Source: a phage. From it: 64,000 nt of DNA. The notes under the pieces were generated by a model. That model was not told where the DNA came from and made no database searches. It was given only the letters and a program-made list of their open reading frames with translations. The position numbers and the translations under genes were made by a program. Shown one piece after another: positions 20,755 to 46,011 of this stretch; positions within the stretch are counted from its first letter, which is position 1; each line of letters opens with the position of its first letter. The DNA lies in the sequence record PV467749.1, one strand, 5' to 3'.

Positions 20755-20755
20755 A

Positions 20756-30714: not shown

Positions 30715-30728
30715 AGTTACCTTATATA

Positions 30729-31970: not shown

Positions 31971-32182
31971 TTTAATTTTATTACCCTTTTGAGTGTATTA
32001 ATGTAATTATACACATTGGCTTCTTGATAGTTAGTTCCCAGTGTAGCTTGAACATAGATTTCATTTAACTTAATAATTTTATCAGTATCTGGTAGTTTTG
32101 ATGTGTTAATGGCAAATAACTTCAAAAACAGTCCATTTAAGATTGTTAGGTATTCTTCGTCGGTAATGATTCGCATTTGCAT
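31940..32182 (-). CDS. family B (LGTNYQE-motif) small protein
   Basis: 80 aa; motif LGTNYQEANV; near-copy of next gene. Confidence 0.55.
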   Translation of the reverse strand: MQMRIITDEEYLTILNGLFLKLFAINTSKLPDTDKIIKLNEIYVQATLGTNYQEANVYNYINTLKRVIKLKCTNSQYTNH

Positions 32183-32388
32183 TGGATAAACCTTTTTAGT
32201 TCTTTGATGTAATCATTAATATTGCATTCTTGATAGTTAGTCCCTAGGGTAGCTTGAACATAGATTTCACTCATTAGAATATTTTTTTCTTCATCAGGTA
32301 AATCTGTGGTCTTTGCTATATACAATTTTAGAATTAAACTACTTAATAGTTCGTGGTATTCACTTGGTGAAAGGATTTTCATTTGCAT
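32146..32388 (-). CDS. family B (LGTNYQE-motif) small protein
   Basis: 80 aa; motif LGTNYQECNI. Confidence 0.55.
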   Translation of the reverse strand: MQMKILSPSEYHELLSSLILKLYIAKTTDLPDEEKNILMSEIYVQATLGTNYQECNINDYIKELKRFIQCKCESLPTKNT

Positions 32389-32594
32389 GTTCTCAGTACA
32401 GATTCTTTAAGTTCATCGATGTAGTCCTCAACGAATTGCTCTTGGAAGTTAGTTCCAACATATAAAAGAACTCTTAAATCTGCTCTAAGTAACTCTTTTT
32501 CATCATCATCTATATCAGACAATGTTATGTTTAAGAATTTACTTGTATTAAAGATTAACAATTCTGTTTGTTCACTGTGGCTTAAAATTTTCAT
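32379..32594 (-). CDS. family B (LGTNYQE-motif) small protein
   Basis: 71 aa; motif VGTNFQEQFV. Confidence 0.55.
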   Translation of the reverse strand: MKILSHSEQTELLIFNTSKFLNITLSDIDDDEKELLRADLRVLLYVGTNFQEQFVEDYIDELKESVLRTCK

Positions 32595-32802
32595 AATCTC
32601 TTTTTGCTTTCCTCGCCAAAAGGTACATATACGATTCTTCGTATTGTGCTTGGTAGTTTGTGTTTAAGAGTCGAAACAACTTCTGTTCTGCTAGAACGAG
32701 TTGCTTATCTTCATAACAACGATAGCGTATCAACTTTTTGTATTCGATGTTGATTACATCCATTACTATAAGCCCATGTTCATCATCTGTCAAGTGTTTC
32801 AT
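32572..32802 (-). CDS. family B (LGTNYQE-motif) small protein
   Basis: 76 aa; motif LNTNYQAQYE. Confidence 0.5.
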   Translation of the reverse strand: MKHLTDDEHGLIVMDVINIEYKKLIRYRCYEDKQLVLAEQKLFRLLNTNYQAQYEESYMYLLARKAKRDYENFKPQ

Positions 32803-33041
32803 GCATTTTTTCTTTTTCTTATATGTTTAGTTAAAAGGTATATTAGTTTTCTGATGTATTCTTCTTGGTAGTTTGTTCCTAGGAGTGCAAGAAGCTTTGC
32901 TTCAACTAGAGCTAATTGACGTTCTTCAAATGTGTGTTCCAGTATGTACTTTGGGTTTGATTTTTTAGAAATTGCACTATTAGTTTTCATTACAATCTTA
33001 TGATATTCATTAACTGTTAGGATTTTTAAATTCTTGAGCAT
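32799..33041 (-). CDS. family B (LGTNYQE-motif) small protein
   Basis: 80 aa; motif LGTNYQEEYI. Confidence 0.55.
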   Translation of the reverse strand: MLKNLKILTVNEYHKIVMKTNSAISKKSNPKYILEHTFEERQLALVEAKLLALLGTNYQEEYIRKLIYLLTKHIRKRKNA

Positions 33042-33267
33042 GTACCTTTTCCTTTATAGAGAATTTAAGATATCGAAGCATACTTTCAATGTAATACTCT
33101 TGTCTGTCAGTTCCAAGAAAGTACATGAGTTGAATGTATAAAACTTCTGCACTCCTTTCGGCAGGTGACTTGTTTGTGTCGTTTGGAAGTTGATTTGTAA
33201 GTTTTCTGGATTTAATTAATCGTTCTTTTAACTCATCGTCTGTTAAGTATTTCATTTCATTTTGCAT
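33010..33267 (-). CDS. family B (LGTNYQE-motif) small protein
   Basis: 85 aa; motif LGTDRQEYYI; near-copy of 33477-33713. Confidence 0.55.
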   Translation of the reverse strand: MQNEMKYLTDDELKERLIKSRKLTNQLPNDTNKSPAERSAEVLYIQLMYFLGTDRQEYYIESMLRYLKFSIKEKVHAQEFKNPNS

Positions 33268-33487
33268 TTACTTTTTCCATAATACTCATTACAAGATGTT
33301 CAATCATATTTTGAACCATAAATTCTTGTTTATCAGTTCCAAGAACGTATTGTAGCTTCTGAAACAATACATTCGCAGACATTTCATATATTGATTGATT
33401 TGGAACGAACTTAAGAGTAATGTTATTGGCTTTTAACATCTTCTCTTGAAATTCTTCATTCGTTAAGTATATCATTTCACTTTGCAT
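33257..33487 (-). CDS. family B (LGTNYQE-motif) small protein
   Basis: 76 aa; motif LGTDKQEFMV. Confidence 0.55.
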   Translation of the reverse strand: MQSEMIYLTNEEFQEKMLKANNITLKFVPNQSIYEMSANVLFQKLQYVLGTDKQEFMVQNMIEHLVMSIMEKVNAK

Positions 33488-33713
33488 TTATTTTTTCCAT
33501 AATAGTGATTTTAAGATATTTAATTATACGTTCAACGTGATACTCTTGCCTATCAGTTCCAAGAAGGTATGGTAATGACTGGAATAAAACTTCTGCACTC
33601 CTTTCCGCTGGGGTTTGGTTTGGGTTGTGTGGAAGATATTTTGTAAGTTTTTTGGATTTATCTAGTCTTTCTGTTAACTCATCATGTGTTAAGTATATCA
33701 TTTCATTTTGCAT
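33477..33713 (-). CDS. family B (LGTNYQE-motif) small protein
   Basis: 78 aa; motif LGTDRQEYHV. Confidence 0.55.
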   Translation of the reverse strand: MQNEMIYLTHDELTERLDKSKKLTKYLPHNPNQTPAERSAEVLFQSLPYLLGTDRQEYHVERIIKYLKITIMEKINAK

Positions 33714-33940
33714 TTAATGTTCCTTACGTAAATTGTCTGGATTAAAAGTGAAATCCATTTTTCTACATATTGGTTTTGATACTGTGTACCTAAGAGGAAC
33801 TGCATTTTAAACTCTGCTTCAAGTTCATATCTCTTTTCTATAGAAAAGCTTAAATGACCATATTCCTTATCGTATCGTCTCATAGCTTCCCCAATTCTAT
33901 CAAATCTTTCTGCTAATCTGATGTTATTCACAATATTCAT
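33698..33940 (-). CDS. family B (LGTNYQE-motif) small protein
   Basis: 80 aa; motif LGTQYQNQYV. Confidence 0.55.
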   Translation of the reverse strand: MNIVNNIRLAERFDRIGEAMRRYDKEYGHLSFSIEKRYELEAEFKMQFLLGTQYQNQYVEKWISLLIQTIYVRNIKCKMK

Positions 33941-34194
33941 CGATCAGTACACCTCAGTGGTTGGGTCATTTGATAAAAGTACAGCTTACCTTTGATTTCC
34001 AATAGTAACTCCGCGATTAAGCGATTTACTTCTGGCTCTTGATAGTTTGTTCCTAAGAATACACCCATCTTTAACTCACGCATCATAATCATTTTCTTAC
34101 TGTGTTGAATTTCTGGGTTGTGATAGATTGTATTACGTTTGTGTGTAATTTTTGTCATACGCTCGGTATATTCATCTTTACTTAAATTGATCAT
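33937..34194 (-). CDS. family B (LGTNYQE-motif) small protein
   Basis: 85 aa; motif LGTNYQEPEV. Confidence 0.55.
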   Translation of the reverse strand: MINLSKDEYTERMTKITHKRNTIYHNPEIQHSKKMIMMRELKMGVFLGTNYQEPEVNRLIAELLLEIKGKLYFYQMTQPLRCTDR

Positions 34195-34427
34195 TTTTTA
34201 TTCTCCAAAGCATCGCATTTATTTTCGATACAATTCATTAGTTCTCTAAGATAGTTTTTTACCTTACCTGCCTGATAGTTCGTCCCCAGGAAGTTGCATA
34301 ACTCTGCTTCTATTATTTTGATTCTTCTGTTATCAGGTTTCAATTTTTTGTTATTGAAGATTTGAATCCTTATATCCCTTGATGCATTTAAACGTTTTTG
34401 ATAATCATGGTAAGATAAATGAATCAT
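34191..34427 (-). CDS. family B (LGTNYQE-motif) small protein
   Basis: 78 aa; motif LGTNYQAGKV. Confidence 0.55.
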   Translation of the reverse strand: MIHLSYHDYQKRLNASRDIRIQIFNNKKLKPDNRRIKIIEAELCNFLGTNYQAGKVKNYLRELMNCIENKCDALENKK

Positions 34428-34642
34428 TTACTTTGTATCTCTCTCTTGAGGGCATCAATTAACAACAGTACAGCATTCTCTTGATAGTTTGTTCCTAAGA
34501 CTGAAAGCATCTTAATCTCATTTACTACAATCAACTTCTTTGAGCGTTCAATAATGTTACTATTATAAACGGCGTTACGTGCTGGATAAGTTTTTGCAAG
34601 ACGATCATAATATTCATCTTTACTTAAATTAATCATTTGCAT
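34424..34642 (-). CDS. family B (LGTNYQE-motif) small protein
   Basis: 72 aa; motif LGTNYQENAV. Confidence 0.55.
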   Translation of the reverse strand: MQMINLSKDEYYDRLAKTYPARNAVYNSNIIERSKKLIVVNEIKMLSVLGTNYQENAVLLLIDALKREIQSK

Positions 34643-34851
34643 TTACTTTTGACCTCTTTCAGTAGAGCATCAACCCATATGTCTACATACATTTGTTGAT
34701 AGTTTGTGTCTAATAGTGCACCTACATATAGTTCAGCTACCATTGCGTGCTTTAGGTCAACAGGGATGCTCTTATCAGATTGAATCTTTACCCTTCTGCT
34801 TCCACATGTTTTCAGAAGCTTAACATATTCGTAACCTATTAATTTTCTCAT
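34633..34851 (-). CDS. family B (LGTNYQE-motif) small protein
   Basis: 72 aa; motif LDTNYQQMYV. Confidence 0.55.
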   Translation of the reverse strand: MRKLIGYEYVKLLKTCGSRRVKIQSDKSIPVDLKHAMVAELYVGALLDTNYQQMYVDIWVDALLKEVKSKCK

Positions 34852-35063
34852 TCTCTGGATAACACCTTGTTGCGTAAGGCACTTAACAATACGTCAGTGT
34901 AGATGTTTTGATAGTTTGTTCCTACGAAAGCACCCAACTTCATTTCAGCTATTATAACACATTTGTCCTCTTGTGCAATAGACTTGTCTAAAGAAATACT
35001 AACAACTTTCCTTCTTATAGCTTGTAACCTCCAATGATACTGAAACTCATTTAGTGTTATCAT
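34848..35063 (-). CDS. family B (LGTNYQE-motif) small protein
   Basis: 71 aa; motif VGTNYQNIYT. Confidence 0.55.
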   Translation of the reverse strand: MITLNEFQYHWRLQAIRRKVVSISLDKSIAQEDKCVIIAEMKLGAFVGTNYQNIYTDVLLSALRNKVLSRE

Positions 35064-35298
35064 TATCTCGTCTCCATATCTCGGTTCTAATGTGTTGACA
35101 TTGTGCTTCGATGAACATATCTATTGATTTGGCAATTGCGTTTTTATCTGTGCCAGTCATCAGTACAAGCATCTCGGCCTCACAGTGAAGTAAACGCATG
35201 ATATCATAGGGTAATATTCCAGATACCGTGTCATAGTGTTTCTGTGCCAGTGTCTGTAATAGTTTACAATACATTTTGTGATTTAGTCTGTGTCGCAT
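35047..35298 (-). CDS. family B-like small protein (divergent)
   Basis: 83 aa; degenerate motif TGTDKNAIAK. Confidence 0.45.
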   Translation of the reverse strand: MRHRLNHKMYCKLLQTLAQKHYDTVSGILPYDIMRLLHCEAEMLVLMTGTDKNAIAKSIDMFIEAQCQHIRTEIWRRDNDNTK

Positions 35299-35558
35299 TG
35301 TTTATTCCATTCTTTTTTTTTGGCCTTGATGGTTTTATATTGGATTTGGTTTCTTAATGCTGATAAGTATCGTTGAATGAACAGATCTTGATAGTTTGTT
35401 CCAATGAATTTCATAAGATAAAGTTCACCGTTGATAACATCCACTTCAGGTGCACCATATAAGGCATTGTTTTTTCTAAGGGCATGGATTAAAGAGAATA
35501 GGGCAGTTTGATACTCAACTCCTGATAAAATCTTCATGTTTTGTGAGCAAATAATCAT
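35283..35558 (-). CDS. family B (LGTNYQE-motif) small protein
   Basis: 91 aa; motif IGTNYQDLFI. Confidence 0.5.
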   Translation of the reverse strand: MIICSQNMKILSGVEYQTALFSLIHALRKNNALYGAPEVDVINGELYLMKFIGTNYQDLFIQRYLSALRNQIQYKTIKAKKKEWNKQCDTD

Positions 35559-35772
35559 CTAGTTTATCCTGTATAACATTCGTTAATTGTTCGATATATT
35601 CTGTGCAAAACTTATCTTGATATTGAGTCCCCATAAAGTACAGCAACCATAGCTCATTAACTTTAGCTCGCATTTGGTTCCATGTAAGGCTGGGGTCATC
35701 GTAGACTATCCTTGCTATAGGGGTTAGTTTACGGACTATAGTTTCATATTCATCTAGTGTTAAGTGTTTCAT
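35515..35772 (-). CDS. family B (LGTNYQE-motif) small protein
   Basis: 85 aa; motif MGTQYQDKFC. Confidence 0.5.
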   Translation of the reverse strand: MKHLTLDEYETIVRKLTPIARIVYDDPSLTWNQMRAKVNELWLLYFMGTQYQDKFCTEYIEQLTNVIQDKLDDYLLTKHEDFIRS

Positions 35773-35987
35773 TTACATTTGTCCCTTATTAGATCAGTGA
35801 GGGCAACTATGTGTGCAACAACATACTCTTCCTGAAAGTTCGTCCCCAGTACAGCCATCATGCGTATATCGGTGGTGTTTATCCTGTGTTCCCTTACACA
35901 TAAACCTTCTGTGTGAGGAAGTGTAAAATATTTGTTTATTGCAGCAACGATAATTTTATTCTTCTCGGAGTTACTTAAATGTTTCAT
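35769..35987 (-). CDS. family B (LGTNYQE-motif) small protein
   Basis: 72 aa; motif LGTNFQEEYV. Confidence 0.55.
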   Translation of the reverse strand: MKHLSNSEKNKIIVAAINKYFTLPHTEGLCVREHRINTTDIRMMAVLGTNFQEEYVVAHIVALTDLIRDKCK

Positions 35988-36196
35988 AGTTTACTCCTGA
36001 TATAATTCTGAAGTGCAATTAAGTATTCCCCTACATAATACACCTGAAAGTCTGTATCAAGGAATGCACCCATAAGTAAATCTTTTTCTAATACCCTTGA
36101 TAAGTTAAGGTCTGCATTTGAAAGGTATATAAGTAAGATTTCACCCTGTGCGGAATTGAAACGTTTCTTATATTCTTCTGGTGTTAAAAAAATCAT
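35984..36196 (-). CDS. family B (LGTNYQE-motif) small protein
   Basis: 70 aa; motif LDTDFQVYYV; near-copy of next gene. Confidence 0.55.
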   Translation of the reverse strand: MIFLTPEEYKKRFNSAQGEILLIYLSNADLNLSRVLEKDLLMGAFLDTDFQVYYVGEYLIALQNYIRSKL

Positions 36197-36408
36197 AATT
36201 TGCTCCTGATATATTTCTCAAGAGATGACAAATACTTTTCCTCATAATACTTCTGATAGTCTGTTCCTAAGAATGCACCCAAAAGTATTTCATTTTCCAA
36301 TACCTCGGCTAAGTTTAAATCAGAAGTCTCTTCGTATATTATGAGGATTTCAAGTTGTCTGGCAGCGATGCGTTCAGTATATTGATATGAGTTTTCTATA
36401 ATAATCAT
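36193..36408 (-). CDS. family B (LGTNYQE-motif) small protein
   Basis: 71 aa; motif LGTDYQKYYE. Confidence 0.55.
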   Translation of the reverse strand: MIIIENSYQYTERIAARQLEILIIYEETSDLNLAEVLENEILLGAFLGTDYQKYYEEKYLSSLEKYIRSKL

Positions 36409-36614
36409 AATTTACTCTTTATATCTTGAATTAAAAATCGAATCCATTCTTCAACATAATCTTCCTGATGGTTTGTGTTCAGTACAGCCAACATGCGGAT
36501 CTCTGCTCTTGCAACTTCAATTTCAGTTTTAGGAAGGTCTTTGCTGATATCCACCATTAAGTCCATGTATTTCAAGATAAGACCGTATGATTGGGTTCGT
36601 GTTATAGTTTTCAT
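36405..36614 (-). CDS. family B (LGTNYQE-motif) small protein
   Basis: 69 aa; motif LNTNHQEDYV. Confidence 0.55.
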   Translation of the reverse strand: MKTITRTQSYGLILKYMDLMVDISKDLPKTEIEVARAEIRMLAVLNTNHQEDYVEEWIRFLIQDIKSKL

Positions 36615-36811
36615 TGTTTCCTCGTGGACAATATTTTATTTTTCAATGTATCCATATATTGAATCACCCATCTTTCCTGATAGTTAGTTCCCAAAGTAAT
36701 CAAAAGGTATAACTCCATTCGTTCTACGTGTGTGTCTGTATTATAAATCTTTGTGAAGTTTTTACGTAACAGTTCTTGATAATCTTCTTTATTTAAAATA
36801 CGCATTTTCAT
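36611..36811 (-). CDS. family B (LGTNYQE-motif) small protein
   Basis: 66 aa; motif LGTNYQERWV. Confidence 0.55.
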   Translation of the reverse strand: MKMRILNKEDYQELLRKNFTKIYNTDTHVERMELYLLITLGTNYQERWVIQYMDTLKNKILSTRKQ

Positions 36812-37005
36812 AGTCTACCTTTTATGTCCCTTCGTAATTCTTGTAAGTATAGTTCGATATACTTTTCTTGATAGTTAGTTCCTATGAAAAGTTTCATAAC
36901 CAATTCACGCTTATATGCAATACCACGGATATGTGACATATGTAGGATATATGCCATGTTGGATATGAGTGTGTGGTTGTGCTCTTCTTGAGTTAAAATA
37001 CGCAT
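36808..37005 (-). CDS. family B (LGTNYQE-motif) small protein, first gene of array
   Basis: 65 aa; motif IGTNYQEKYI. Confidence 0.55.
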   Translation of the reverse strand: MRILTQEEHNHTLISNMAYILHMSHIRGIAYKRELVMKLFIGTNYQEKYIELYLQELRRDIKGRL

Positions 37006-37532: not shown

Positions 37533-37934
37533 TTACAGTCCTAAGATAGTGCGTGCTTCGTTACGTTCCGTACACAGCTGCATGATGTGAGCAAGTAAGT
37601 CCTTGCTAATGTATCCGGTGTTCATAGCTTCACGAATAGATACATCATAAGCACCGAACCCAGTGCGAACGATACGCACATCATTCAGGTTAGTATTATA
37701 GATACCGCCGAGATCAACGGCTTCGAATACTACATCAACAGAATATTCATTGTTGCCATCGTGGAAGTTTTCCAGTGCAATAGTATTGGAAACCGCCCAA
37801 CGTTTGCAGTTTCCAATGATGCGGCACTGTTCCGGTTGGATAGTGCCATTACTTACAGCGTACTCCAGTGCATCTTTACCAAAAGTCCGAGCCAGTACTA
37901 AAACGTCAGCGAAGGAAGTGATTGAGAAGGTCAT
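37533..37934 (-). CDS. hypothetical protein
   Basis: 133 aa from ATG 37932-37934 (AAGGAG SD); track ORF extended through promoter. Confidence 0.55.
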   Translation of the reverse strand: MTFSITSFADVLVLARTFGKDALEYAVSNGTIQPEQCRIIGNCKRWAVSNTIALENFHDGNNEYSVDVVFEAVDLGGIYNTNLNDVRIVRTGFGAYDVSIREAMNTGYISKDLLAHIMQLCTERNEARTILGL

Positions 37935-37988
37935 GATAAAACTCCTTAATTTAGGAGGGAGAACCATTTCCCCCTCTCTATGTAAAAC

Positions 37989-38016
37989 ATTATACATGAA
38001 TCTAAGTACTATGCAA
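37989..38016 (-). promoter_or_regulatory. sigma70-like early promoter
   Basis: Minus-strand TTGCAT, 16 bp spacer, TATAAT; transcript start context TACAT. Confidence 0.5.
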
Positions 38017-38023
38017 GTACTTT

Positions 38024-38356
38024 TTACATTTTGATACCTGGATTCAGGTAGCGGTGAGATCCATACTCTGGATCGGTTTCGGTCCAGTACTGTAAATCGA
38101 TAGTACCTTTCGCGTTAATCTTGTCTACCAGCTTATTCATCTTAGCGTATACTACATCAGCATCGATGCGTTTAAAGCCAGTGGCTTTAGTGAAGTAGTA
38201 GTGATTTGCTTCACTATCATTCAGGATGTACCGAGAACCGTTTGCCGTTTGTGCGATAATGATTGAGTATTCTACGTTACGGTCGAGGCCGTCGATGAAT
38301 ACAGAGGAAACATTAGTACGGATGAATGCTTTAACGATAGCGATTGAAGTAGTCAT
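38024..38356 (-). CDS. hypothetical protein
   Basis: 110 aa; AGGAG SD. Confidence 0.55.
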   Translation of the reverse strand: MTTSIAIVKAFIRTNVSSVFIDGLDRNVEYSIIIAQTANGSRYILNDSEANHYYFTKATGFKRIDADVVYAKMNKLVDKINAKGTIDLQYWTETDPEYGSHRYLNPGIKM

Positions 38357-38409
38357 TTTGAATCTCCTAACTTTGTGGGCCGTCGCACCATTGCCGCCCT
38401 ACGAGATAC

Positions 38410-38438
38410 ATTATCGCAGTACTGATATACTTTGTCAA
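38410..38438 (-). promoter_or_regulatory. sigma70-like early promoter
   Basis: Minus-strand TTGACA, 17 bp spacer with CAGTACTG, GATAAT. Confidence 0.5.
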
Positions 38439-38560
38439 TACTTTTTTATTAATAGTTTTCACCCCACCAGCAGATAGTTACTCACCGTTATTAACTATAT
38501 ATTTTGGATACACCTATGCACCCTGTGGGCTAGTTTTTGTCTATGCGTATATAATAGCAA

Positions 38561-38584
38561 AGGGACTGACCGGAGTCAATCCCT
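38561..38584. terminator. bidirectional terminator inside repeated intergenic cassette
   Basis: Hairpin AGGGACTGAC-cgga-GTCAATCCCT with T7 on plus and U-rich tail on minus; 3' of gene 38602-38802. Confidence 0.5.
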
Positions 38585-38601
38585 TTTTTTATTCTTTTTT
38601 G

Positions 38602-38802
38602 TTAGATGATTCTCCAATCATCAACGATCATGGTAAGATACCGAACCAGTGATTCGAGTGATTCGTGTTCTCGATAGTCTGCCGCTCCACCAGCGGTACA
38701 AGTACAGCCGATTAAGCCGTTTTGTAGTTCCTGGATCTTTACGTCGATCTGGTTGGCTTTAGCTTCTTTCAGTACTGCAACCAGGGCGATAGCGATAGAC
38801 AT
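38602..38802 (-). CDS. hypothetical small protein
   Basis: 66 aa. Confidence 0.5.
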   Translation of the reverse strand: MSIAIALVAVLKEAKANQIDVKIQELQNGLIGCTCTAGGAADYREHESLESLVRYLTMIVDDWRII

Positions 38803-38892
38803 AATGTTTTACTCCAAACTATTGGCGGGAGAACTATTCCCCCGCTCTATGTAAAACATTATACATTACTGGTTAGTACTGTCAAATAGTTT

Positions 38893-39150
38893 TTATGAAA
38901 TATCTTCGATGTAGTCGGCCCATTTCATTTTTTCAGTACTGTCAATGGCGACCGGATTATTTGGATCAAACCATTCACCATCACCGCAATACATACCCAC
39001 GGCTACGGTTTTATAGCCATCCTGGGCAGTACACCACGACATTGCACGATAGATATGGCCTTTAACTGGTTGCAGTACTGGTAACGTTTTATGGTCTTCT
39101 ACGTAGGCCATAGCTTGTGGATTTACCCGATATTGTGTGAACTGATCCAT
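38893..39150 (-). CDS. hypothetical protein
   Basis: 85 aa. Confidence 0.5.
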   Translation of the reverse strand: MDQFTQYRVNPQAMAYVEDHKTLPVLQPVKGHIYRAMSWCTAQDGYKTVAVGMYCGDGEWFDPNNPVAIDSTEKMKWADYIEDIS

Positions 39151-39226
39151 TATGTTTCCCCTTGTAGTTAGTAAAGTTATTACATCAGTACTATCAAGCT
39201 ATGTCAATAGTACTGAAATAAAACTT

Positions 39227-39451
39227 TTAGATTAGATTATTGAGGCCGTCAATGGTAGACTCACCTTCTTCTTTCTCCCATTGTCGGTAGTACTTCCATG
39301 CTTCATGATAGGTGGCGATTAGTTCATCTTTTTGATCCTGGTTACATGCCAGTACTGAATCACGGTGAGCGGTGTTATAGATAGAATCGAATGATTTCTT
39401 CTCTTCTGCCAGGTTAGCTACTTCCCGCATCAGTTCATCAAAGTTAGCCAT
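39227..39451 (-). CDS. hypothetical small protein
   Basis: 74 aa; promoter and hairpin upstream. Confidence 0.5.
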   Translation of the reverse strand: MANFDELMREVANLAEEKKSFDSIYNTAHRDSVLACNQDQKDELIATYHEAWKYYRQWEKEEGESTIDGLNNLI

Positions 39452-39518
39452 TTTATTACTCCTTTTAGTGGGGGAGGATATCTCCCCCTATGCAAAACAT
39501 TATACTTTGTTTTAGTTA

Positions 39519-39782
39519 TTATGCAAGTACTTTTTTCATATAAACATTAAATTCTACACCGCCGTAACCTTCCACGATGATATGTTTTGCGTTATCACGT
39601 TTGCACATAGTGAAACCGTTGTTGATGTGTTCTGAATTTTCCAGGGCGACATCACCGATAGCGGCACATACAGCACTAATAACAGTATTCCGCAAAGTAC
39701 TGGTATCATTGGCGGTCATAGTAGTTTGCAGTACTACGTTGTCGTATACGTGTGCATTGATAGTGATTTCGATAGTGTTCAT
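39519..39782 (-). CDS. hypothetical protein
   Basis: 87 aa from ATG 39780-39782 (AGGAG SD); track N-terminus MFYIERGKWF is promoter and hairpin sequence. Confidence 0.55.
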   Translation of the reverse strand: MNTIEITINAHVYDNVVLQTTMTANDTSTLRNTVISAVCAAIGDVALENSEHINNGFTMCKRDNAKHIIVEGYGGVEFNVYMKKVLA

Positions 39783-39869
39783 GTTGTATCTCCTGGACTT
39801 GAGGGGAAACCATTTCCCCCTCTCGATATAAAACATTATACGTTAATCTAACTACAATGCAAGTACTTT

Positions 39870-40061
39870 TTAAATTTTATTTCCGATATAGTCCGGCATG
39901 TTCTTTTCAGTCATACGCTTTGCTAATGTCTGCATATGGCTTATAGCGTTCAAGGTGTCTTCCTCCAGGGATGAATCGAGATAATCAGGATCATTCTTCA
40001 CCTTGCAATGATTATGATAGCGTAGTACTGCCAGTACTTTTTTAACTTCTTCAACTGTCAT
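39870..40061 (-). CDS. hypothetical small protein
   Basis: 63 aa; ATGA overlap with upstream gene. Confidence 0.5.
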   Translation of the reverse strand: MTVEEVKKVLAVLRYHNHCKVKNDPDYLDSSLEEDTLNAISHMQTLAKRMTEKNMPDYIGNKI

Positions 40062-40330
40062 AATAAGTACTCCACTTCGTTAGCTTTCAGGTTAGTATCA
40101 ATCATCAATGGTTTTTTGTAGTTCACAAAACGATTAGTTTTTTCGATAGCAAATCCCATATAATCCAGCTTACTAACAGTACATTCATTCTTAAAAACTT
40201 CTTTCGCTGCATCGATGGCTGATTGCATGGATAACCGACCATCTAAATTAATGTTTCCAAATGATCCACCAGCAGAAGTAGGATTACCGTTCATATCTTT
40301 AATGATCATAGTAGCGGAGTAGCTGGACAT
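40058..40330 (-). CDS. hypothetical protein
   Basis: 90 aa; PeSL cassette upstream. Confidence 0.55.
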   Translation of the reverse strand: MSSYSATMIIKDMNGNPTSAGGSFGNINLDGRLSMQSAIDAAKEVFKNECTVSKLDYMGFAIEKTNRFVNYKKPLMIDTNLKANEVEYLL

Positions 40331-40352
40331 AATTTTGTTTCCTTTTATTGGT

Positions 40353-40411
40353 GGGGAGAACTATTCTCCCCTTGATGTAAACTATTATACAGTACTGATA
40401 TACTTTGTCAA
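40353..40411 (-). promoter_or_regulatory. promoter plus stem-loop cassette (PeSL-like)
   Basis: TTGACA 40406-40411, 16 bp spacer, TATAAT 40384-40389, then hairpin GGGGAGA-actat-TCTCCCC 40353-40371. Confidence 0.55.
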
Positions 40412-40417
40412 ATACTT

Positions 40418-40825
40418 TTATTCGCCCATATAGATTAGATTATCATCGCCTACATAGGGATCGCAAACGTTGATTTCTTCGCAGTACTTAGTGAATATAT
40501 CATCATAGTGACCGATATCACGATCCCAAAAACCAGTGCCGTGACCTTCGCGAGTAAGAAAGAGATCATGACCTGCATGACTATAAGTATAATCAGGATT
40601 ATGGTGTTTTTGTACTGTTTCCATATCTTCACCATGTACAGCAAGGAAACGTGAACATGCAATCACTGCCGCTTGATGGGCTTGCTCTGATAATTCATAA
40701 TCTTCCAGGTATTCGCCGTTCTCATTGTGTACTGTACTGAATTGCATAGCTTCAATGTAACCAGCGACCATTGCAGCATGATTTTTATCGTTGGCGATGG
40801 ACCGAGCTTGATTAGTAGTAGTCAT
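40418..40825 (-). CDS. hypothetical protein
   Basis: 135 aa; His-rich motif GHDLFLTREGHGTGFWDRDIGHYDD. Confidence 0.55.
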   Translation of the reverse strand: MTTTNQARSIANDKNHAAMVAGYIEAMQFSTVHNENGEYLEDYELSEQAHQAAVIACSRFLAVHGEDMETVQKHHNPDYTYSHAGHDLFLTREGHGTGFWDRDIGHYDDIFTKYCEEINVCDPYVGDDNLIYMGE

Positions 40826-40846
40826 GATTTTATTCCTTTTAGTATC

Positions 40847-40905
40847 GGGGAGAACTATTCTCCCCTTGATGTAAACTATTATACAGTACTGGTATACTTT
40901 GTCAA
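40847..40905 (-). promoter_or_regulatory. promoter plus stem-loop cassette (PeSL-like)
   Basis: Identical architecture to 40353-40411. Confidence 0.55.
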
Positions 40906-40908
40906 TAC

Positions 40909-41130
40909 TTAATTACGTTTAAAATGATATGTACCTTTATCATCCTGTACGCCCCATACTGATTTACCATTTAAACCAGTGAAGCCGGATTGTAATTCAA
41001 TATGGAAACCATTATTATCAACTACAAAAACTTTTTTATTTTCATCCCGATAGCATTGATATTCTTCACCTGCTTTAAATGCTGCATCATTCAGAAGATT
41101 TGAAGCGTGAACGCAGGTCATAGTAGTCAT
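40909..41130 (-). CDS. hypothetical small protein
   Basis: 73 aa from ATG 41128-41130; track ORF extended through promoter. Confidence 0.5.
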   Translation of the reverse strand: MTTMTCVHASNLLNDAAFKAGEEYQCYRDENKKVFVVDNNGFHIELQSGFTGLNGKSVWGVQDDKGTYHFKRN

Positions 41131-41317
41131 CGTCTTGATTCCTTTTAGTACTAGGGAGAACCATTTCCCCCTCTCGATATAAAACATTATACGCTCATTG
41201 AGATAGTTTGCAAGTACTTTTTTAAAAATAGTTTTCAGTACTGAATACTTATATAATAGATACACTTCCGCACCCTATGGGTCAGTGAGTTATCTCTCAA
41301 TGGATATATAATAGCAA

Positions 41318-41341
41318 AGGGACTGACCGGAGTCAATCCCT
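41318..41341. terminator. bidirectional terminator inside repeated intergenic cassette
   Basis: Same hairpin as 38561-38584, followed by T6; 3' of kinase-like gene. Confidence 0.5.
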
Positions 41342-41354
41342 TTTTTAATCTTTT

Positions 41355-41939
41355 TTATCGTGTTACCTTACTTGCTGCCACATCACGCTTTTTATAGTAC
41401 TGATTCCAGATATTGCAGGTTAAACCGTAATCAAGTACTTTAATAAGGCCATTACGATCCTGGCCGATATTCTGTTTTCTGATATCTCTTATCGTTAGTG
41501 TTGATAATGTATCATCGACGTGTTGTAGTGCATCAGCAAAGCGGTGCTGGCGTTCGATTGCATTACGTTTAATATTGTACTTTAATTCATTGCACGCGTT
41601 TACGTGCTTCACACTACCTTTGCTTGCAGTACTCAACCGATCCATAACGATAAACATATTATCAGGATCGCATAAATGCATATGCACCTTTGCAAAGTAC
41701 TGTTTCAACTGAGGGCGGTCATAGTCTAAAAAATTCCATACCTTACATTCAGTTTCATTTTGTTCTACACCCGCATCACAATTCGCGACCTTAATCACTA
41801 ACCGATCATTTAAAGCGAAAACTATACGGGAAGAACCAGCACCGATGATCTCCAGGCCAGCTAACCGACAAGCTGAAAGGATCTCTTTGTTGGTTTCCAT
41901 TTCTGACAGTGTACGGATGAATTTAGTATAATTACGCAT
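41355..41939 (-). CDS. protein kinase-like protein (minimal ePK/RIO/KdoK-like fold)
   Basis: 194 aa from ATG 41937-41939 (AAGGAG SD); motifs in order IIGAGSSRIVF, VIKV, RDIRKQN, VLDYG. Confidence 0.5.
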   Translation of the reverse strand: MRNYTKFIRTLSEMETNKEILSACRLAGLEIIGAGSSRIVFALNDRLVIKVANCDAGVEQNETECKVWNFLDYDRPQLKQYFAKVHMHLCDPDNMFIVMDRLSTASKGSVKHVNACNELKYNIKRNAIERQHRFADALQHVDDTLSTLTIRDIRKQNIGQDRNGLIKVLDYGLTCNIWNQYYKKRDVAASKVTR

Positions 41940-41970
41940 TGCATGTTCTCCTTGAGTTAATGAAACTATA

Positions 41971-42213
41971 TTACAGTACTTTACTATCAATGGCAACTAC
42001 TTTTTTAACATTAACGGCGTGGATCACTTCCTTCGTGTTTTTAGTACTGAATACTTTCGCCGCTCCTTGTTCGACCGTGATACGATAGCGACCATTAACA
42101 TCAACCATATTAATAAAGTCCGGCGTGCTGAATGGTGTTGTTTTACATTTGAGTACTGTTAACAGTTCCACCAGCGATGTAGTTTCTTTGATACGTTTTT
42201 CTAAAGTAATCAT
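41971..42213 (-). CDS. hypothetical protein
   Basis: 80 aa from ATG 42211-42213; upstream leader duplicated at 42490-42546. Confidence 0.5.
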   Translation of the reverse strand: MITLEKRIKETTSLVELLTVLKCKTTPFSTPDFINMVDVNGRYRITVEQGAAKVFSTKNTKEVIHAVNVKKVVAIDSKVL

Positions 42214-42270
42214 TTTGTTTCCCCCGTGTTGGTATGTACATATAGTACTAAAACATTTGAGTACTGTCAA

Positions 42271-42489
42271 TTAGATAATATTATATTTCTTAAAATAAAA
42301 TGCGTCCTGTGTTGGTTGATACTCAATTCCATTGCCGTTATTGACTTCAACTAATAAACCTTTGTCAATAAGTTTTTTAATAGTACGATACCCTTGTTGA
42401 AAATTGGTAAAATGTGAATCATTACGAAAGGTATAACCGTGCTTAACTGCTTCATCAATAGTTTTCTTTTCGATTTTAGATAATTTCAT
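42271..42489 (-). CDS. hypothetical small protein
   Basis: 72 aa from ATG 42487-42489; promoter TTGACA-17-TACTAT upstream. Confidence 0.5.
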   Translation of the reverse strand: MKLSKIEKKTIDEAVKHGYTFRNDSHFTNFQQGYRTIKKLIDKGLLVEVNNGNGIEYQPTQDAFYFKKYNII

Positions 42490-42542
42490 TTTGTTTCTCC
42501 CGTGTTGGTATGTGTACATAGTACTAAAACATTTGAGTACTG

Positions 42543-42797
42543 TCAACGTGATATTAGTTTTATTTTCTTATTGTATTGTTGATGCTCATAAAGGTTTATC
42601 TTTCCTGTGTTCTCGATTACTATCCTGTTGTTAGTGTCCACGTCGATTACACGCAGTTTCCCGTTGCTTAACTTCCTAGGTAATAGGTTACCATTAATAA
42701 ACTCATTAGCAAGCTGTACGGCCTTTGTGATGATTCTCTGAGGTGCTTTATAGTGTACCCGTAAGATGTTATCTTTATATAGTTGAACCTTAATCAT
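42543..42797 (-). CDS. hypothetical protein
   Basis: 84 aa. Confidence 0.5.
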   Translation of the reverse strand: MIKVQLYKDNILRVHYKAPQRIITKAVQLANEFINGNLLPRKLSNGKLRVIDVDTNNRIVIENTGKINLYEHQQYNKKIKLISR

Positions 42798-42804
42798 TTT
42801 GTTT

Positions 42805-42836
42805 GTCCGATAAAAAAGGCGGGAACTGATCCCGCC
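42805..42836 (-). terminator. intrinsic terminator
   Basis: Hairpin GGCGGGA-actga-TCCCGCC 42818-42836 with U-run on minus RNA; 3' of gene 42859-43254. Confidence 0.55.
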
Positions 42837-42858
42837 GTGTTGTTAGTACTGCAAGTTA

Positions 42859-43254
42859 TTAGATAACCTGGCGGCGTTTACTGTATACTGTTACACGATT
42901 ACCCTTACGATCATGTCGGATCTCTTTCTGGTTGCGAATCAGTTCACTTGGACGCTTAAGGTTTGCCAGGTGATCCGCGTGAGTCCATGCGGTGTGGTTT
43001 ACCTGTACTTTGATATCAGAATCAGCGATAAACTCATCTTGTGCGTCAAGTATTGCCGCCAGCATATCCGCTCGTTTTAGTTCTGCTGCTGTCAGTACTG
43101 GCTCAGGTGAATTCACAATATCAGAGATTTCTTTGAACTGTACGGCCCAGCGTTGACCTTTCGGTGCATCTTTGCCCATGTCTTTAAATGCTGCTCCTTC
43201 CTCGCGTGCAACAATACGGGCAGCTTCACGGGTAGCGTAGAATTTAGTAATCAT
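42859..43254 (-). CDS. hypothetical protein, paralog of 54841-55107
   Basis: 131 aa; shared N-terminal YFATRE.AR..AR..GA.FKDMG and C-terminal DRKGNRVTVY. Confidence 0.55.
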   Translation of the reverse strand: MITKFYATREAARIVAREEGAAFKDMGKDAPKGQRWAVQFKEISDIVNSPEPVLTAAELKRADMLAAILDAQDEFIADSDIKVQVNHTAWTHADHLANLKRPSELIRNQKEIRHDRKGNRVTVYSKRRQVI

Positions 43255-43349
43255 GGTATACATCCTATTAGTTAAGTTAGTACTACAAGTTAGAGTCTAT
43301 TATAAAGTACTATCTGGACAGTGTCAAATAGTACTTTAAATGGATTCTA

Positions 43350-43673
43350 TTACATGTCTTTCTTACGTTTTACATCGTGGTAGCGAACTGTAATTTCTTT
43401 GTTGATCTCTTCCTCGATGCGGTGAATAACTTTTTCTTTCGGGTTGAAACCTATAACGGTTTCTTTAATGATCTCCAAGCCCGTGTATTCGCCTTGTGTA
43501 CCGTAACCGTATGTAAAGGTTTCGTGTCCCAGGTCTTCCCAGCGATCACCAATCAATGCGGACACGTAGCAGGAGTGGTAAGTATTGCCGTGGCTATCAG
43601 TCCACCGATTAACTTTAATGTCAAAGGAGGTTACAATTTTCAGTTCTACTTTCTGGGTAAGGATCATAGCCAT
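43350..43673 (-). CDS. hypothetical protein, paralog of 49861-50184
   Basis: 107 aa; shared RWTDS.GNTYHSC.VS and TYGY; C-terminal VKRKKD. Confidence 0.55.
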   Translation of the reverse strand: MAMILTQKVELKIVTSFDIKVNRWTDSHGNTYHSCYVSALIGDRWEDLGHETFTYGYGTQGEYTGLEIIKETVIGFNPKEKVIHRIEEEINKEITVRYHDVKRKKDM

Positions 43674-43696
43674 TTTTATTTCTCTCTCTTTGTTAG

Positions 43697-43757
43697 GAGG
43701 GGAACCATTCCCCTCGCTTGATGTAAACTATTATACAGTACTAAGATACTTTGTCAA
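43697..43757 (-). promoter_or_regulatory. promoter plus stem-loop cassette (PeSL-like)
   Basis: TTGACA 43752-43757, TATAAT 43730-43735, hairpin GAGGGGAA-cca-TTCCCCTC 43697-43715. Confidence 0.55.
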
Positions 43758-43760
43758 TAC

Positions 43761-43943
43761 TTATTTTTTGGAAAGTTTACGCATTAATTCTACGCTTTCT
43801 TGTGAACGTTTTGCTACCTGGCAAGCTGTATGGGCAGTAAACATTTTTGTATAGTCTGACGCTTTGCCACCGAACCGAGCGGCACGTTCACGGGCACTTG
43901 GAACTAATACTATTTCTTTCTTGCAGATAGTGCACTTAGCCAT
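43761..43943 (-). CDS. hypothetical small protein
   Basis: 60 aa; cysteines CTIC and C at 40. Confidence 0.45.
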   Translation of the reverse strand: MAKCTICKKEIVLVPSARERAARFGGKASDYTKMFTAHTACQVAKRSQESVELMRKLSKK

Positions 43944-43966
43944 TTTTATTTCTCTCTTTTAGTTAG

Positions 43967-44026
43967 GAGGGGAACCATTCCCCCTCTCGATGTAAACTAT
44001 TATACAGTACTAAGATACTTTGTCAA
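43967..44026 (-). promoter_or_regulatory. promoter plus stem-loop cassette (PeSL-like)
   Basis: Near-duplicate of 43697-43757. Confidence 0.55.
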
Positions 44027-44029
44027 TAC

Positions 44030-44305
44030 TTAAGTATTGTAAATGTCGTGAATAGTGATAAAGTTTTTACGACCGTAAACATGTAAATCAGTATCAATGT
44101 AGTGCTTATCAAGTACATCATCGACGCTTAAAGACGTGTCGTGAATATCTTCATAAAATTGTGGATCAACAATCGTGCTTAAGTCATCTGGCGTTAACTT
44201 ATCGTTAAGGCATTGAACCGCCTGGATATCTGCTTCACGTTTCCATTGTTCCAGATTAGTAGTCAGTACTTGCTCGATTTCGTTAGCTGTAAGTAAAGTC
44301 CGCAT
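44030..44305 (-). CDS. hypothetical protein
   Basis: 91 aa. Confidence 0.5.
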   Translation of the reverse strand: MRTLLTANEIEQVLTTNLEQWKREADIQAVQCLNDKLTPDDLSTIVDPQFYEDIHDTSLSVDDVLDKHYIDTDLHVYGRKNFITIHDIYNT

Positions 44306-44374
44306 TTTAATGTTTCCTTATCAGTGGTTGATGTAAGTATTATACTCGTTTACTTTCTATTGTCAAACTATTTT

Positions 44375-44447
44375 ATCAGGGGAGTTTTTCGTATGTCTTA
44401 CTCCTGGACTACTTAACGGGGTTACTTATTTCGTTCCCCGTCCTGAT
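44375..44447 (-). ncRNA. candidate structured RNA element between tandem promoters (copy 1)
   Basis: 73 nt, outer stem ATCAGG/CCTGAT, inner hairpin CGGGG..CCCCG; second copy at 54161-54235 with compensatory stem changes. Confidence 0.3.
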
Positions 44448-44582
44448 GTAAAACATTATACTTGATTCTAAGTACAATGCAAGTACTTTTTAAAAATAGT
44501 TTTCAGTACTAGCCACCAGTAAACAATAGATACATTTATGCACCCGGTGGGCTGATTTGTTTCTATGCGTATATAATAGCAA

Positions 44583-44606
44583 AGGGACTGACCGGAGTCA
44601 ATCCCT
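44583..44606. terminator. bidirectional terminator inside repeated intergenic cassette
   Basis: Same hairpin as 38561-38584, T5 follows. Confidence 0.5.
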
Positions 44607-44619
44607 TTTTCAATTATTT

Positions 44620-44769
44620 TTAAACTTCTTTCGGGTTGCGATATGTGATAGCGTTCGGGTACATTTGTTTAATGTTATTCCATGCCTGGTTAACATTATA
44701 ACCACTTGATCGAATCAGTTGGTTATTACCGACACCTTGAAACACTACTTCAAATAAGAATTCTTTCAT
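44620..44769 (-). CDS. hypothetical small protein (below ORF-track cutoff)
   Basis: 49 aa ORF read by hand (MKEFLFEVVFQGVGNNQ...); ATGA overlap with stop of upstream gene. Confidence 0.35.
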   Translation of the reverse strand: MKEFLFEVVFQGVGNNQLIRSSGYNVNQAWNNIKQMYPNAITYRNPKEV

Positions 44770-44939
44770 GCTTTCACCTCGCTATCTGCTTTGCCTTTAC
44801 GCCAGGCCGTTGCTAATTGTTCGCGTTGCCATAAGTCGAGTGATACGTAAAGTTTTGCATTATCACCCTTCGGATATTCGCCAGTAGTACCAATCCGATA
44901 AAACAGATCTTTCAGTACTGTTAATTCTACCTGGACCAT
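44766..44939 (-). CDS. hypothetical small protein
   Basis: 57 aa from ATG 44937-44939; track ORF extended through promoter. Confidence 0.45.
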   Translation of the reverse strand: MVQVELTVLKDLFYRIGTTGEYPKGDNAKLYVSLDLWQREQLATAWRKGKADSEVKA

Positions 44940-45026
44940 TATACTTTCCTCTTTGTTCGGAGGGGAACTATTCCCCTTCCGATATAAAACATTATACACT
45001 TTATTCAGTACTGTGCAAGTACTTTT

Positions 45027-45239
45027 TTAATCTTTCAGCCAATGATCCTGAATGAATTTTTCACCGGAACCTTGCTGCATTGATTGTAACAGACGTTCGC
45101 GATGAGCGGCGGCGAATTGCTCAGTACTATGCGTTACACCTGGTTGATATCTGGATTCACCATTGGGGGCGATGTATTGTACATCCCACGGTTTTTCGTT
45201 AGTATCAGACCATTTACGAACGATTAGTTGACCTTGCAT
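45027..45239 (-). CDS. hypothetical small protein
   Basis: 70 aa; PeSL cassette upstream. Confidence 0.5.
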   Translation of the reverse strand: MQGQLIVRKWSDTNEKPWDVQYIAPNGESRYQPGVTHSTEQFAAAHRERLLQSMQQGSGEKFIQDHWLKD

Positions 45240-45324
45240 TTTTCTTTCCTCTTAGTGGGGAGAATCATTTCTCCCCTTCATGTAAACTATTATACAGTAC
45301 TATAATCTATTGTCCAGTACTTTT

Positions 45325-45513: not shown

Positions 45514-45591
45514 TTTTATTTCCTCTTAGTAGGGGAAGATGTTTCCCCTTGATGCAAGTACTATAACAGTACTGAAAACTAAATGCAAGTA

Positions 45592-45948: not shown

Positions 45949-46011
45949 GATTTCAATCCTCAGTTAAGATATAAAACATTATACACTACTGGATAGTACT
46001 GTCAATACTTT

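Follow-up and report, generated by a model that had tools for sequence, protein, structure and literature searches.

A promoter-linked repeat element with a predicted structured RNA in the terminal repeat of Rak2-like jumbo phages

In a stretch of 64,000 nucleotides of phage DNA (sequence record PV467749.1; the whole stretch is referred to as the window), a sequence-only reading had noted an intergenic cassette, first seen at 38470-38600, that occurs four times, and had described it as a bidirectional terminator accompanied by a second hairpin. Our analysis places the four cassettes in a larger family of elements, each of which follows a predicted sigma-70 promoter and appears to encode a small structured RNA. 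We consider the chances about even that the unit is an autonomous three-in-one module, which combines a terminator, an embedded strong sigma-70 promoter and a small structured immediate-early non-coding RNA (ncRNA).

Cassette hairpins and the predicted promoter within them

The four copies were recovered where the sequence-only reading had placed them, as direct-repeat family D16 (38507-38599, 41264-41356, 44529-44621 and 48215-48307), and they are related far beyond the terminator hairpin. The 22-nt hairpin GGGACTGACCGGAGTCAATCCC is exact in copies 1-3 (expected number in the window: 0), and the hairpin of copy 4 is a variant with two compensatory pair changes in which TTGAC is retained. The shared core GCACCCNNTGGG was found 10 times in the window compared to 0.34 expected occurrences. 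The string that had been quoted as common to the copies, [TC]TCCGCACCC, is exact in copies 2 and 4, whereas copy 1 has CTATGCACCC and copy 3 has TTATGCACCC instead.

The hairpin had been regarded as a terminator that is best on the plus strand. This holds for the T-run but not for the stem, as the minus-strand RNA has a predicted folding energy of −19.5 compared to −13.2 kcal/mol for the plus-strand RNA (−15.9 and −6.4 kcal/mol in copy 4). One stem pair, U·G in the minus-strand RNA, is a C·A mismatch on the plus strand, and terminator prediction lists the cassette hairpin on the minus strand. There, the hairpin starts 10-16 nt past the stop codons of the minus-strand genes 38602-38802, 41355 onwards, 44620-44769 and 48301-48435. 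The last three stem pairs on this strand are A-U and are followed by the tail UUUGCUAUUAU, in which the U-run is short and interrupted; the plus-strand side offers U6-7, but following the mismatch-bearing stem. Judged from the stem, the functional strand of the cassette is the minus, gene-sense strand.

While the hairpin is of the terminator type, as had been proposed, it also holds the −35 hexamer of a predicted sigma-70 promoter. The string TATATAATAG of the earlier description is the reverse complement of a TGn-TATTAT −10 element on the minus strand. All four cassette promoters (TTGACT-N17-TATTAT) show 10 of 12 matches, a 17-bp spacer and TGn, and were reported independently by a generic promoter scan; the promoters of the other element copies reach 9-11 of 12 matches. 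Immediately upstream of hairpin and −35 lies a tract of A5-7, which is the T-run of the plus strand and occupies the position of an UP-element. Across six phages, the −35 lies within a stable hairpin for at least 23 of the 40 copies that share the orientation of the genes, counted with a strict filter that missed several further co-oriented copies, and for none of the 22 copies of opposite orientation. Due to its stability, its position after stop codons and the restriction of the −35 enclosure to co-oriented copies, we interpret the hairpin as the terminator of the upstream gene with a promoter built into it, and we have good confidence in this predicted double role. Behind the cassette promoter lie first the non-coding element and then another complete promoter; the gene start is 150-210 bp downstream. 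The features, all on the minus strand, are:

38559-38586, minus: terminator-like hairpin of cassette 1 behind upstream gene 38602-38802; 12 pairs, −19.5 kcal/mol, z −7.1; −35 TTGACT at 38579-38574 in the 5' arm
38551-38579, minus: predicted sigma-70 promoter of cassette 1, TTGACT-N17-TATTAT with TGn (promoter scan)
41316-41343, minus: predicted terminator hairpin of cassette 2 behind upstream gene 41355-~41940; embedded −35 at 41336-41331
41308-41336, minus: predicted promoter of cassette 2, TTGACT-N17-TATTAT with TGn (promoter scan)
44581-44608, minus: predicted terminator hairpin of cassette 3 behind gene 44620-44769; embedded −35 at 44601-44596
44528-44601, minus: predicted promoter (−10 at 44578-44573) and element RNA (core 44551-44540) of cassette 3 (promoter scan, covariance model)
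48267-48294, minus: predicted variant terminator hairpin of cassette 4 behind gene 48301-48435; UUCG loop, two compensatory pair changes; embedded −35 at 48287-48282
48209-48287, minus: predicted promoter (−10 at 48264-48259) and element RNA (core 48232-48221) of cassette 4; covariance model 63.4 bits

The element family and its predicted RNA

The fourfold repeat turned out to be part of a family of 10 full units and one partial copy. After all ten cores had been oriented to read CCCANNGGGTGC, minus-strand cores were located at 38518, 41270, 44540, 46526, 48221 and 54424 and plus-strand cores at 52447, 54367, 56256 and 56472. TTGAC[AT]-N16/17-[TC]AT[AT]AT precedes all ten oriented cores at a nearly fixed distance. 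At 54.43 kb, GGC..GCC surrounds the same loop as described earlier, but this site, taken at the time for a variant, is a full member of the 10-copy family, which is conserved across genera. The members other than the units of cassettes 3 and 4 are:

38506-38544, minus: element RNA of cassette 1 with short A-rich 5' segment; core CCCACAGGGTGC at 38529-38518, 3' arm end at 38506, predicted start ~38544; covariance model 40.8 bits
41258-41301, minus: element RNA of cassette 2; 5' hairpin (H1) UGAG-AGAUAA-CUCA, the second hairpin of the sequence-only reading; core 41281-41270; 64.4 bits
46514-46594, minus: unfused member with promoter TTGACA-N17-TGgCATAAT, H1 GACG-AGAA-CGUC and core 46537-46526; a separate predicted terminator (46643-46618) lies just upstream
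52390-52470, plus: promoter and element of a member opposite to the genes; core 52447-52458; runs into the hairpin at 52499-52519
52499-52519, plus: hairpin shared with the terminator of minus-strand gene 52525-52776; terminator-like on both strands; probable 3' end of the 52447+ RNA (~100 nt)
54317-54390, plus: plus half of a convergent pair; core 54367-54378; 27.8 bits
54412-54489, minus: minus half of this pair; H1 UGGC-AGAUAA-GCCG (the GGC..GCC site); core 54435-54424; 48.6 bits
56200-56279, plus: member facing the partial copy; core CCCAGGGGGTGC at 56256-56267 (promoter scan, covariance model)
56300-56320, minus: partial copy UAGGGUGC-GGGAG-UGUAUCC, then U7; 3' helix terminator-like; 15.1 bits, E 0.7
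56416-56495, plus: member directed toward the presumed physical genome end; core 56472-56483; 48.2 bits

The 4-kb stretch around the cassettes shows 94-98% identity (BLAST) to the Asteriusvirus jumbo coliphages EC.P1, G17, vB_Ec-M-J, fEgEco12 and PBECO4 relatives, which identifies the window as DNA of an Asteriusvirus (PBECO4/121Q-like) jumbo coliphage. The matching DNA of vB_Ec-M-J falls within an annotated 21.5-kb direct terminal repeat, and a 21-kb repeat was confirmed by experiment for fEgEco12 (PMC13070987). By collinearity with these relatives, the terminal repeat of the window would extend over about 37.1-57.6 kb, and all cassettes sit in this ~21-kb direct repeat. A covariance model built from 19 copies recovered exactly the ten window copies and the partial copy at 56300-56320, and gave no match over the 37 kb of window sequence that lie outside the repeat.

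When the terminal-repeat regions of eight relatives were searched for the core and one mismatch was allowed, the count came to 90 core sites in nine phages, ~85 of them real, which corresponds to 10-13 per phage; the five other Rak2-like genera contain 10-13 element copies each. At 83 of the 90 sites, we detected a sigma-70 promoter with at least 9 of 12 matches whose −10 element ends 21-29 nt before CCCA. Cross-genus BLAST identity was 80-88% and was limited to stretches of 42-82 nt with parts of promoter and element (Klebsiella phages RaK2, K64-1 and Muenster, Cronobacter phage GAP32, Pectobacterium phage CBB, Erwinia phage Hallingskeid and Klebsiella phage fENko-Kae01 / Salmonella phage 7t3). 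An exact 15-mer scan of IMG/VR revealed 78 loci, of which only those on contigs of 345-380 kb (Rak2-like) passed the promoter and helix test. The remaining loci failed it and are regarded as chance matches, and a wider distribution outside Rak2-like phages was rejected. Neither motif search nor covariance model found an element copy in the repeat of the more distant Pseudomonas phage PA5oct. On the basis of these comparisons, we are confident to a good degree that the multi-copy family is restricted to the terminal repeats of Rak2-like phages. Between the window, G17 and vB_Ec-M-J, the element positions are collinear with spacings that agree within ~30 bp. An apparent 6.6-kb versus 4-kb difference had suggested an indel at the cassettes; this was discarded, as BLAST had joined repeated cassettes and the element spacing is collinear.

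The predicted RNA of ~55 nt consists of a 5' hairpin with an A-rich loop (H1), the invariant CCC-ANN-GGGUGC and a G·U-rich 3' helix, and the element lies from about +3 to about +55 relative to the predicted start. The copies at 41.3 and 48.2 kb contain the second hairpin of the earlier description, CAGTGAG-ttatct-CTCAATG, which does show covariation and corresponds to H1 of the predicted RNA from the embedded promoter. A hairpin of 3-5 bp with its 3' arm ending 3-5 nt before CCCA was found in 53 of 66 distinct copies compared to 10.9 ± 2.9 in shuffled sequences. Its loops are A-rich (AGAACAA, AGAUAA, GCGAAA, GAGAAA), and at least 18 different stem sequences occur at this position. In a same-register subset (37 cells), all four H1 pairs change on both sides; the subset was picked for register, and only the covariation counts as evidence. 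RNAalifold detected compensatory changes in 23-34 sequences per H1 pair in a model-guided alignment of 67 copies, which leans toward H1.

RNAalifold also proposed, unprompted, a 4-bp hairpin R-CCC-ANN-GGG-U (H2), with G·U (35 sequences) or A-U (29 sequences) as the outer pair. H2 is supported by variants that the covariance model recovered, which comprise the four-base loops CCC-UCAA-GGG, CCC-UAGA-GGG and CCC-AAAA-GGG as well as one double change, CCU-ACA-AGG. Furthermore, GGGUGC can pair with RYRYCY six bases downstream (H3), with 88.5% of cells paired in the ungapped alignment compared to 29-55% in slid registers. The variable side of H3 shows transitions only, which keep G·U/G-C or U-A/U·G pairs, and since pairs that would survive on the opposite strand amount to only about 44%, H3 is specific to the promoter-sense strand. 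Together, the covariation of H1 and the G·U-compatible, transition-only 3' arm form the signature of a promoter-sense RNA, and we have good confidence that the sequences encode a conserved structured transcript downstream of the promoter. Two other pairings were rejected: a long-range closing helix, because 5'/3' duplex energies were no better than shuffled (−3.7 versus −3.3 kcal/mol), and the AGAUA:UAUCU pairing of two minimum-energy folds, which is specific to one H1 type.

Possible function and alternative explanations

In the proposed mechanism, the GC-rich hairpin with its UNCG-type loop would end transcription of the upstream early gene. TTGACT in the 5' arm, the UP-like A-tract upstream and TGn-TATTAT 17 bp downstream would then act as a strong host sigma-70 promoter, and because the −35 lies inside the terminator hairpin, transcription would restart ~30 bp after stopping. 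The product would be a small RNA with few leader bases, H1 (3-5 bp), a spacer of 3-5 nt, H2, GC and a G·U-rich segment, which may form a second hairpin or pair back with GGGUGC as H3. Firing right after infection, the promoters may supply an abundant immediate-early ncRNA, which would be free-standing (~95-110 nt) if the unit faces a terminator and would form the 5' end of a longer transcript if the unit is co-oriented. Since the invariance of CCC-ANN-GGGUGC exceeds the needs of pairing, this hairpin could be the recognition site of a hypothetical host or phage protein and work as a decoy, sponge or handle, while H1 could mark the identity of the paralogue. If a guess is made, the most plausible product would be an immediate-early ncRNA that acts autonomously and carries an invariant hairpin recognised by a protein.

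The orientation of the copies bears on this proposal. Of the ten window copies, six run in the direction of the genes and four run against all genes. For single copies of opposite orientation, in the window as in other genera, a hairpin and U-tract terminator lies ~25-35 nt downstream. It is usually the hairpin of the converging gene and results in a unit length of ~95-110 nt, similar to that of a small-RNA gene. A predicted promoter and terminator of their own, and no open reading frame, are found for 52447+, RaK2 18163+/25231+, fENko 12344+/20037+ and Hallingskeid 17453+. For co-oriented copies, homology of the first downstream gene is limited to the sister phages CBB and GAP32. Homologous downstream proteins in different genera come with different H1 types, and the widely conserved H1 type UUGGCAGAUAAGCCG is found ahead of unrelated genes. 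The conservation of the element is thus independent of its neighbours, which speaks for a module that has a function of its own and against a leader tied to particular genes. A leader of this kind was rejected, with downstream proteins unrelated across genera and an H1 type that does not track the gene. The same applies to a leader peptide, as the 11-codon open reading frame (ORF) in 54367+ is not conserved and 46537- has a stop in the same frame, and to a plus-strand small RNA antisense to the element, for which only a lone TATAAT (41252-41257) without −35 is available that the promoter scan does not report and that copies 1 and 3 lack.

Several observations weigh against an autonomous RNA. 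All promoters, transcript starts and transcript ends are sequence predictions. Co-oriented copies, including all four cassettes, have no own terminator before the complete promoter of the next gene, so that their RNA would be a leader and not a discrete small RNA. A short class of copies, which includes cassettes 1 and 3, has an A-rich segment with little or no H1 stem (marginal). H2 and H3 compete for one GGG; in the thermodynamic ensemble, H2 has the higher mean pair probability (0.54 versus 0.21 for H3), and the modelled H2 could coexist with a 4-bp remnant of H3. The folding stability of the element is ordinary (z about −1 to −2), and the case for structure is therefore built on position and covariation instead of folding energy. 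Finally, the invariance of the 12-mer fits recognition at the DNA level equally well.

The first alternative, which we regard as rather unlikely, is a cis-acting leader that controls the flow into downstream early genes, either by put/nut-like processive antitermination or as an attenuator that switches between H2 (CCC:GGG) and H3 (GGGUGC:RYRYCY). The position of the element directly behind the promoter, from about +3 to about +55, would suit such a leader, as would two or three small hairpins with mutually exclusive pairings, the terminator-like succession of H3 and a U-run in a few copies (56319-56300, GAP32 11528, CBB 11360) and the fact that 6 of about nine regional terminators adjoin an element. 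Most copies, however, lack the U-tract after H3, no boxA/boxB-like sequence is found in the element, and many promoters but no further predicted terminators that would have to be read through lie between the cassettes. In addition, the downstream gene always has its own promoter and is not conserved, and opposite-oriented copies run into a terminator with no gene beyond.

We consider it unlikely that the 12-mer acts at the DNA level, as an operator or as an origin/iteron-like site activated by transcription, with the cassette as a mobile unit that shuffles early genes in the manner of promoter-early stem-loops (PeSLs). The invariance of the 12-mer where RNA pairing alone would permit covariation is consistent with such a site, and so are the occurrence in both orientations, the inverted pairs 57-86 bp apart and a region of repeated promoter/stem-loop modules like the PeSLs of T4-type phages (PMC2839356, PMC4122927). 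Yet nearly all copies have a promoter at a fixed distance and in constant relative orientation, and H1 covariation together with the transition-only, G·U-compatible 3' arm is an RNA signature. A rigid DNA site would not be expected to tolerate both 3 and 4 nt between CCC and GGG, as is seen here, and the Asteriusvirus element positions are collinear without an indel at the cassettes.

Convergent pairs with cores 57-86 bp apart are common. They occur in the window (54317-54489), in L004 (22681-22797, 25491-25607) and in L005 (22166-22282, 24995-25111); in terms of cores, the window pairs are 54367+/54435- and 56256+/56303-, and CBB, GAP32, Hallingskeid and fENko-Kae01 contain 2-3 pairs each. 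Their predicted transcripts would be fully mutually complementary, and each would fold into a perfect long hairpin of 12-17 bp. It may be speculated that convergent units form double-stranded RNA or cause polymerase collision and thereby insulate early gene blocks, with single copies as decayed halves. The frequency and the long hairpins of the pairs, as well as a degenerate inverted CCACCAG segment kept by cassettes 1 and 3, speak for this; but single copies form the majority and are no less well conserved than paired ones, and neither double-stranded RNA nor collision needs H1 covariation, and we judge this explanation very unlikely.

The plain bidirectional intrinsic terminator of the sequence-only reading, with conserved flanks, an accessory plus-strand hairpin and neither promoter nor RNA gene, explains least and appears highly improbable: the hairpin, flanked by an A-run and a T-run, could stop transcription in both directions, the annotation of G17 says terminator and a hairpin of this type could terminate the RNA of the partner where other phages have convergent pairs, but no plus-strand promoter feeds the four cassettes beyond the lone TATAAT, the plus-strand stem bears the C·A mismatch, and both the consensus promoter spacing and the presence of the same element behind ordinary promoters elsewhere are left unexplained.

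Returning to the autonomous immediate-early RNA, it is tentatively possible, though rather doubtful, that these units represent a new class of phage RNAs, with ~10 paralogous genes per repeat and ~20 per packaged genome, all of them behind a near-consensus host promoter. Flooding the cell in the first minutes of infection, such RNAs might capture RNA polymerase itself, a defence that targets RNA or a conserved RNA-binding factor of enterobacteria, or might re-programme it. Promoters in terminator hairpins would pack the RNA genes between early operons, and the RNAs would share the 12-nt hairpin handle and differ in a paralogue-specific 5' hairpin.

Related systems and the early-gene array

One of the nearest known systems is that of the PeSL cassettes of T4-type phages, which are composite terminator/promoter units (Arbiol 2010, PMC2839356; Comeau 2014, PMC4122927). 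Both systems consist of short repeated intergenic modules in a plastic early region, in which a stem-loop/terminator is combined with a near-consensus sigma-70 early promoter behind A/T-rich DNA, and the ordinary gene promoters of the window (repeat families D1-D10) match the PeSL pattern closely. In contrast to PeSLs, whose stem-loop lies just upstream of the promoter, the −35 is located here within the stem. A PeSL ends in a Shine-Dalgarno sequence and start codon, whereas the cassette promoter drives a non-coding element that is followed by a second promoter, and the element also occurs without stem-loop and in opposite orientation. The proposed role of PeSLs is recombination, with no RNA function proposed, and their association with indels between close relatives was not seen between the window, G17 and vB_Ec-M-J.

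With the HK022 put and lambda nut sites, the element shares a promoter-proximal transcribed position, an early region with terminators, adjacent small stem-loops and several copies per genome. HK022 put RNAs are ~65-70 nt long with long stems, and lambda nut needs boxA and a boxB pentaloop hairpin. The stems of the element comprise 3-7 bp, and no boxA-like sequence was present in the alignment when compared with the known consensus sequences; there are 10-13 copies instead of 2, and some oppose operons and end at a terminator.

As the nearest precedent, RNA-seq of the related Pseudomonas jumbo phage PA5oct revealed the abundant ncRNA001 and ncRNA002 of 236-451 nt from the direct terminal repeat (PMC7318152). 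This resembles the situation proposed here, as the lineage is related and a long repeat of small early genes read by the host polymerase gives rise to abundant non-coding transcripts; however, no structure or motif is described for these ncRNAs, the PA5oct repeat lacks the element, and there is no known sequence relation. A first-entering repeat with many strong host-type promoters, small genes and terminators is likewise a feature shared with SPO1 and T5. The terminal redundancy of SPO1 and the first-step-transfer DNA of T5 are host-takeover or pre-early modules in phage terminal repeats, and we know of no repeated conserved non-coding RNA unit described for them. Repetitive extragenic palindromic sequences (REPs) of enterobacteria are chromosomal, promoterless and transcribed only within neighbouring mRNAs, and are mobilised by RAYT transposases. 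The elements resemble REPs and bacterial interspersed mosaic elements in being short conserved intergenic units just after genes that can face either way, are frequently arranged as inverted pairs, have the potential to form hairpins and affect transcript ends, but they have a promoter and show no sequence similarity.

An Rfam scan of 36-58 kb (E ≤ 10) revealed nothing on the elements and only sub-threshold matches from terminator hairpins, and no tRNA or tmRNA genes were found. Possible similarities to CRISPR repeats (I-E, I-F), ToxI repeats and the elemental pause consensus and a 14-nt similarity to tmRNA helix 2 were dropped without a match, and so was a CsrA sponge with GGA loops, as GGA is present in only about half of the loops. 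In the records of G17 and GAP32, such sites are annotated only as terminator or stem_loop. The CBB paper lists RpoD-like promoters only, and regulatory elements are not a topic of the phAPEC6 and fEgEco12 papers (the latter PMC13070987). No description of the element came up when the literature was searched by sequence string, phage name and genus. Hence, the predicted RNAs form an apparently undescribed family with kinship to two known kinds, the composite terminator/promoter cassette and the phage small RNA.

The most conserved cross-genus sequence in the repeat is a predicted promoter-driven structured RNA in 10-13 copies and not a protein gene. Rak2-like jumbo phages (Asteriusvirus, Alcyoneusvirus, Mimasvirus and relatives) are isolated for therapy, and their first 20 kb are annotated almost entirely as hypothetical protein. 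The terminal repeat presumably enters the cell first. If these RNAs are made, they would rank with the earliest and most abundant products of the phage and be an obvious candidate for a host-takeover or anti-defence function. The −35 within the terminator would also be a compact and portable stop-and-restart part for understanding and engineering phage transcription units.

The repeat contains an array of ~50 small minus-strand ORFs. Most of them are preceded by a near-consensus sigma-70 promoter of their own, after which comes a leader that contains a perfect 8-bp hairpin (D1-D10; promoter scan). We counted ~20-25 of these ordinary early-gene modules at 37900-56100 (e.g. 45234-45327 and 48092-48207), all with one layout: TTG[CA][AC]A-N16-TATAAT, the leader GTTTTACATCRAR, the perfect 8-bp hairpin GGGGAGAA-NNNN-TTCTCCCC, ACTAA and a ribosome-binding site. 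The leader and H1 of the element look like a derivative of this module. Two gene promoters, 50226-50254 and 38410-38438 (TTGACA-N17-[CG]ATAAT with TGn), belong to the class of the element promoters and directly drive ordinary genes, which means that this promoter class is not exclusive to the element. A second type of terminator on the minus strand, AGCCCAC...GTGGGCT followed by a T-run, occurs at 46618-46643, 50973-50994 and 51709-51725, and its 5' arm is similar to the AGCCCAC start of the element core.

Chi sites (GCTGGTGG) were found 11 times at 38464-56996 compared to 0.38 expected. All of them fall within the terminal repeat, 9 of the 11 on its minus strand. The minus-strand orientation would face RecBCD entry at the inner-boundary end of the right-hand repeat copy, and a distance of ~600 bp separates the plus-strand site 56989-56996 from the presumed left genome end. 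Some Chi sites are located inside terminator stems (46621-46628) or, in related phages, inside element promoter spacers. This distribution suggests that the linear ends are protected by means of Chi. In the whole window, 274 occurrences of the palindrome AGTACT were counted compared to ~21 expected from base composition; the excess extends over all three parts of the window, coding and non-coding alike, and AGTACT is often present as CAGTACTG in promoter spacers, where it provides the TG of the extended −10.

The non-coding stretch 56000-57800 adjoins the presumed physical genome end. It contains 8-bp tandem repeats, CGTCTAGC and CATCCAGC (family D13), especially at 56671-56822, and a predicted plus-strand consensus promoter (56541-56569) is directed into this non-coding DNA. 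The stretch may represent a packaging, end-recognition or injection signal. Outside the terminal repeat, the direct-repeat families D8, D11, D12, D17 and D18 (40-207 nt, spacing ~210-440 bp) at 15427-21835 and 30377-37000 probably mark tandem arrays of small paralogous genes.

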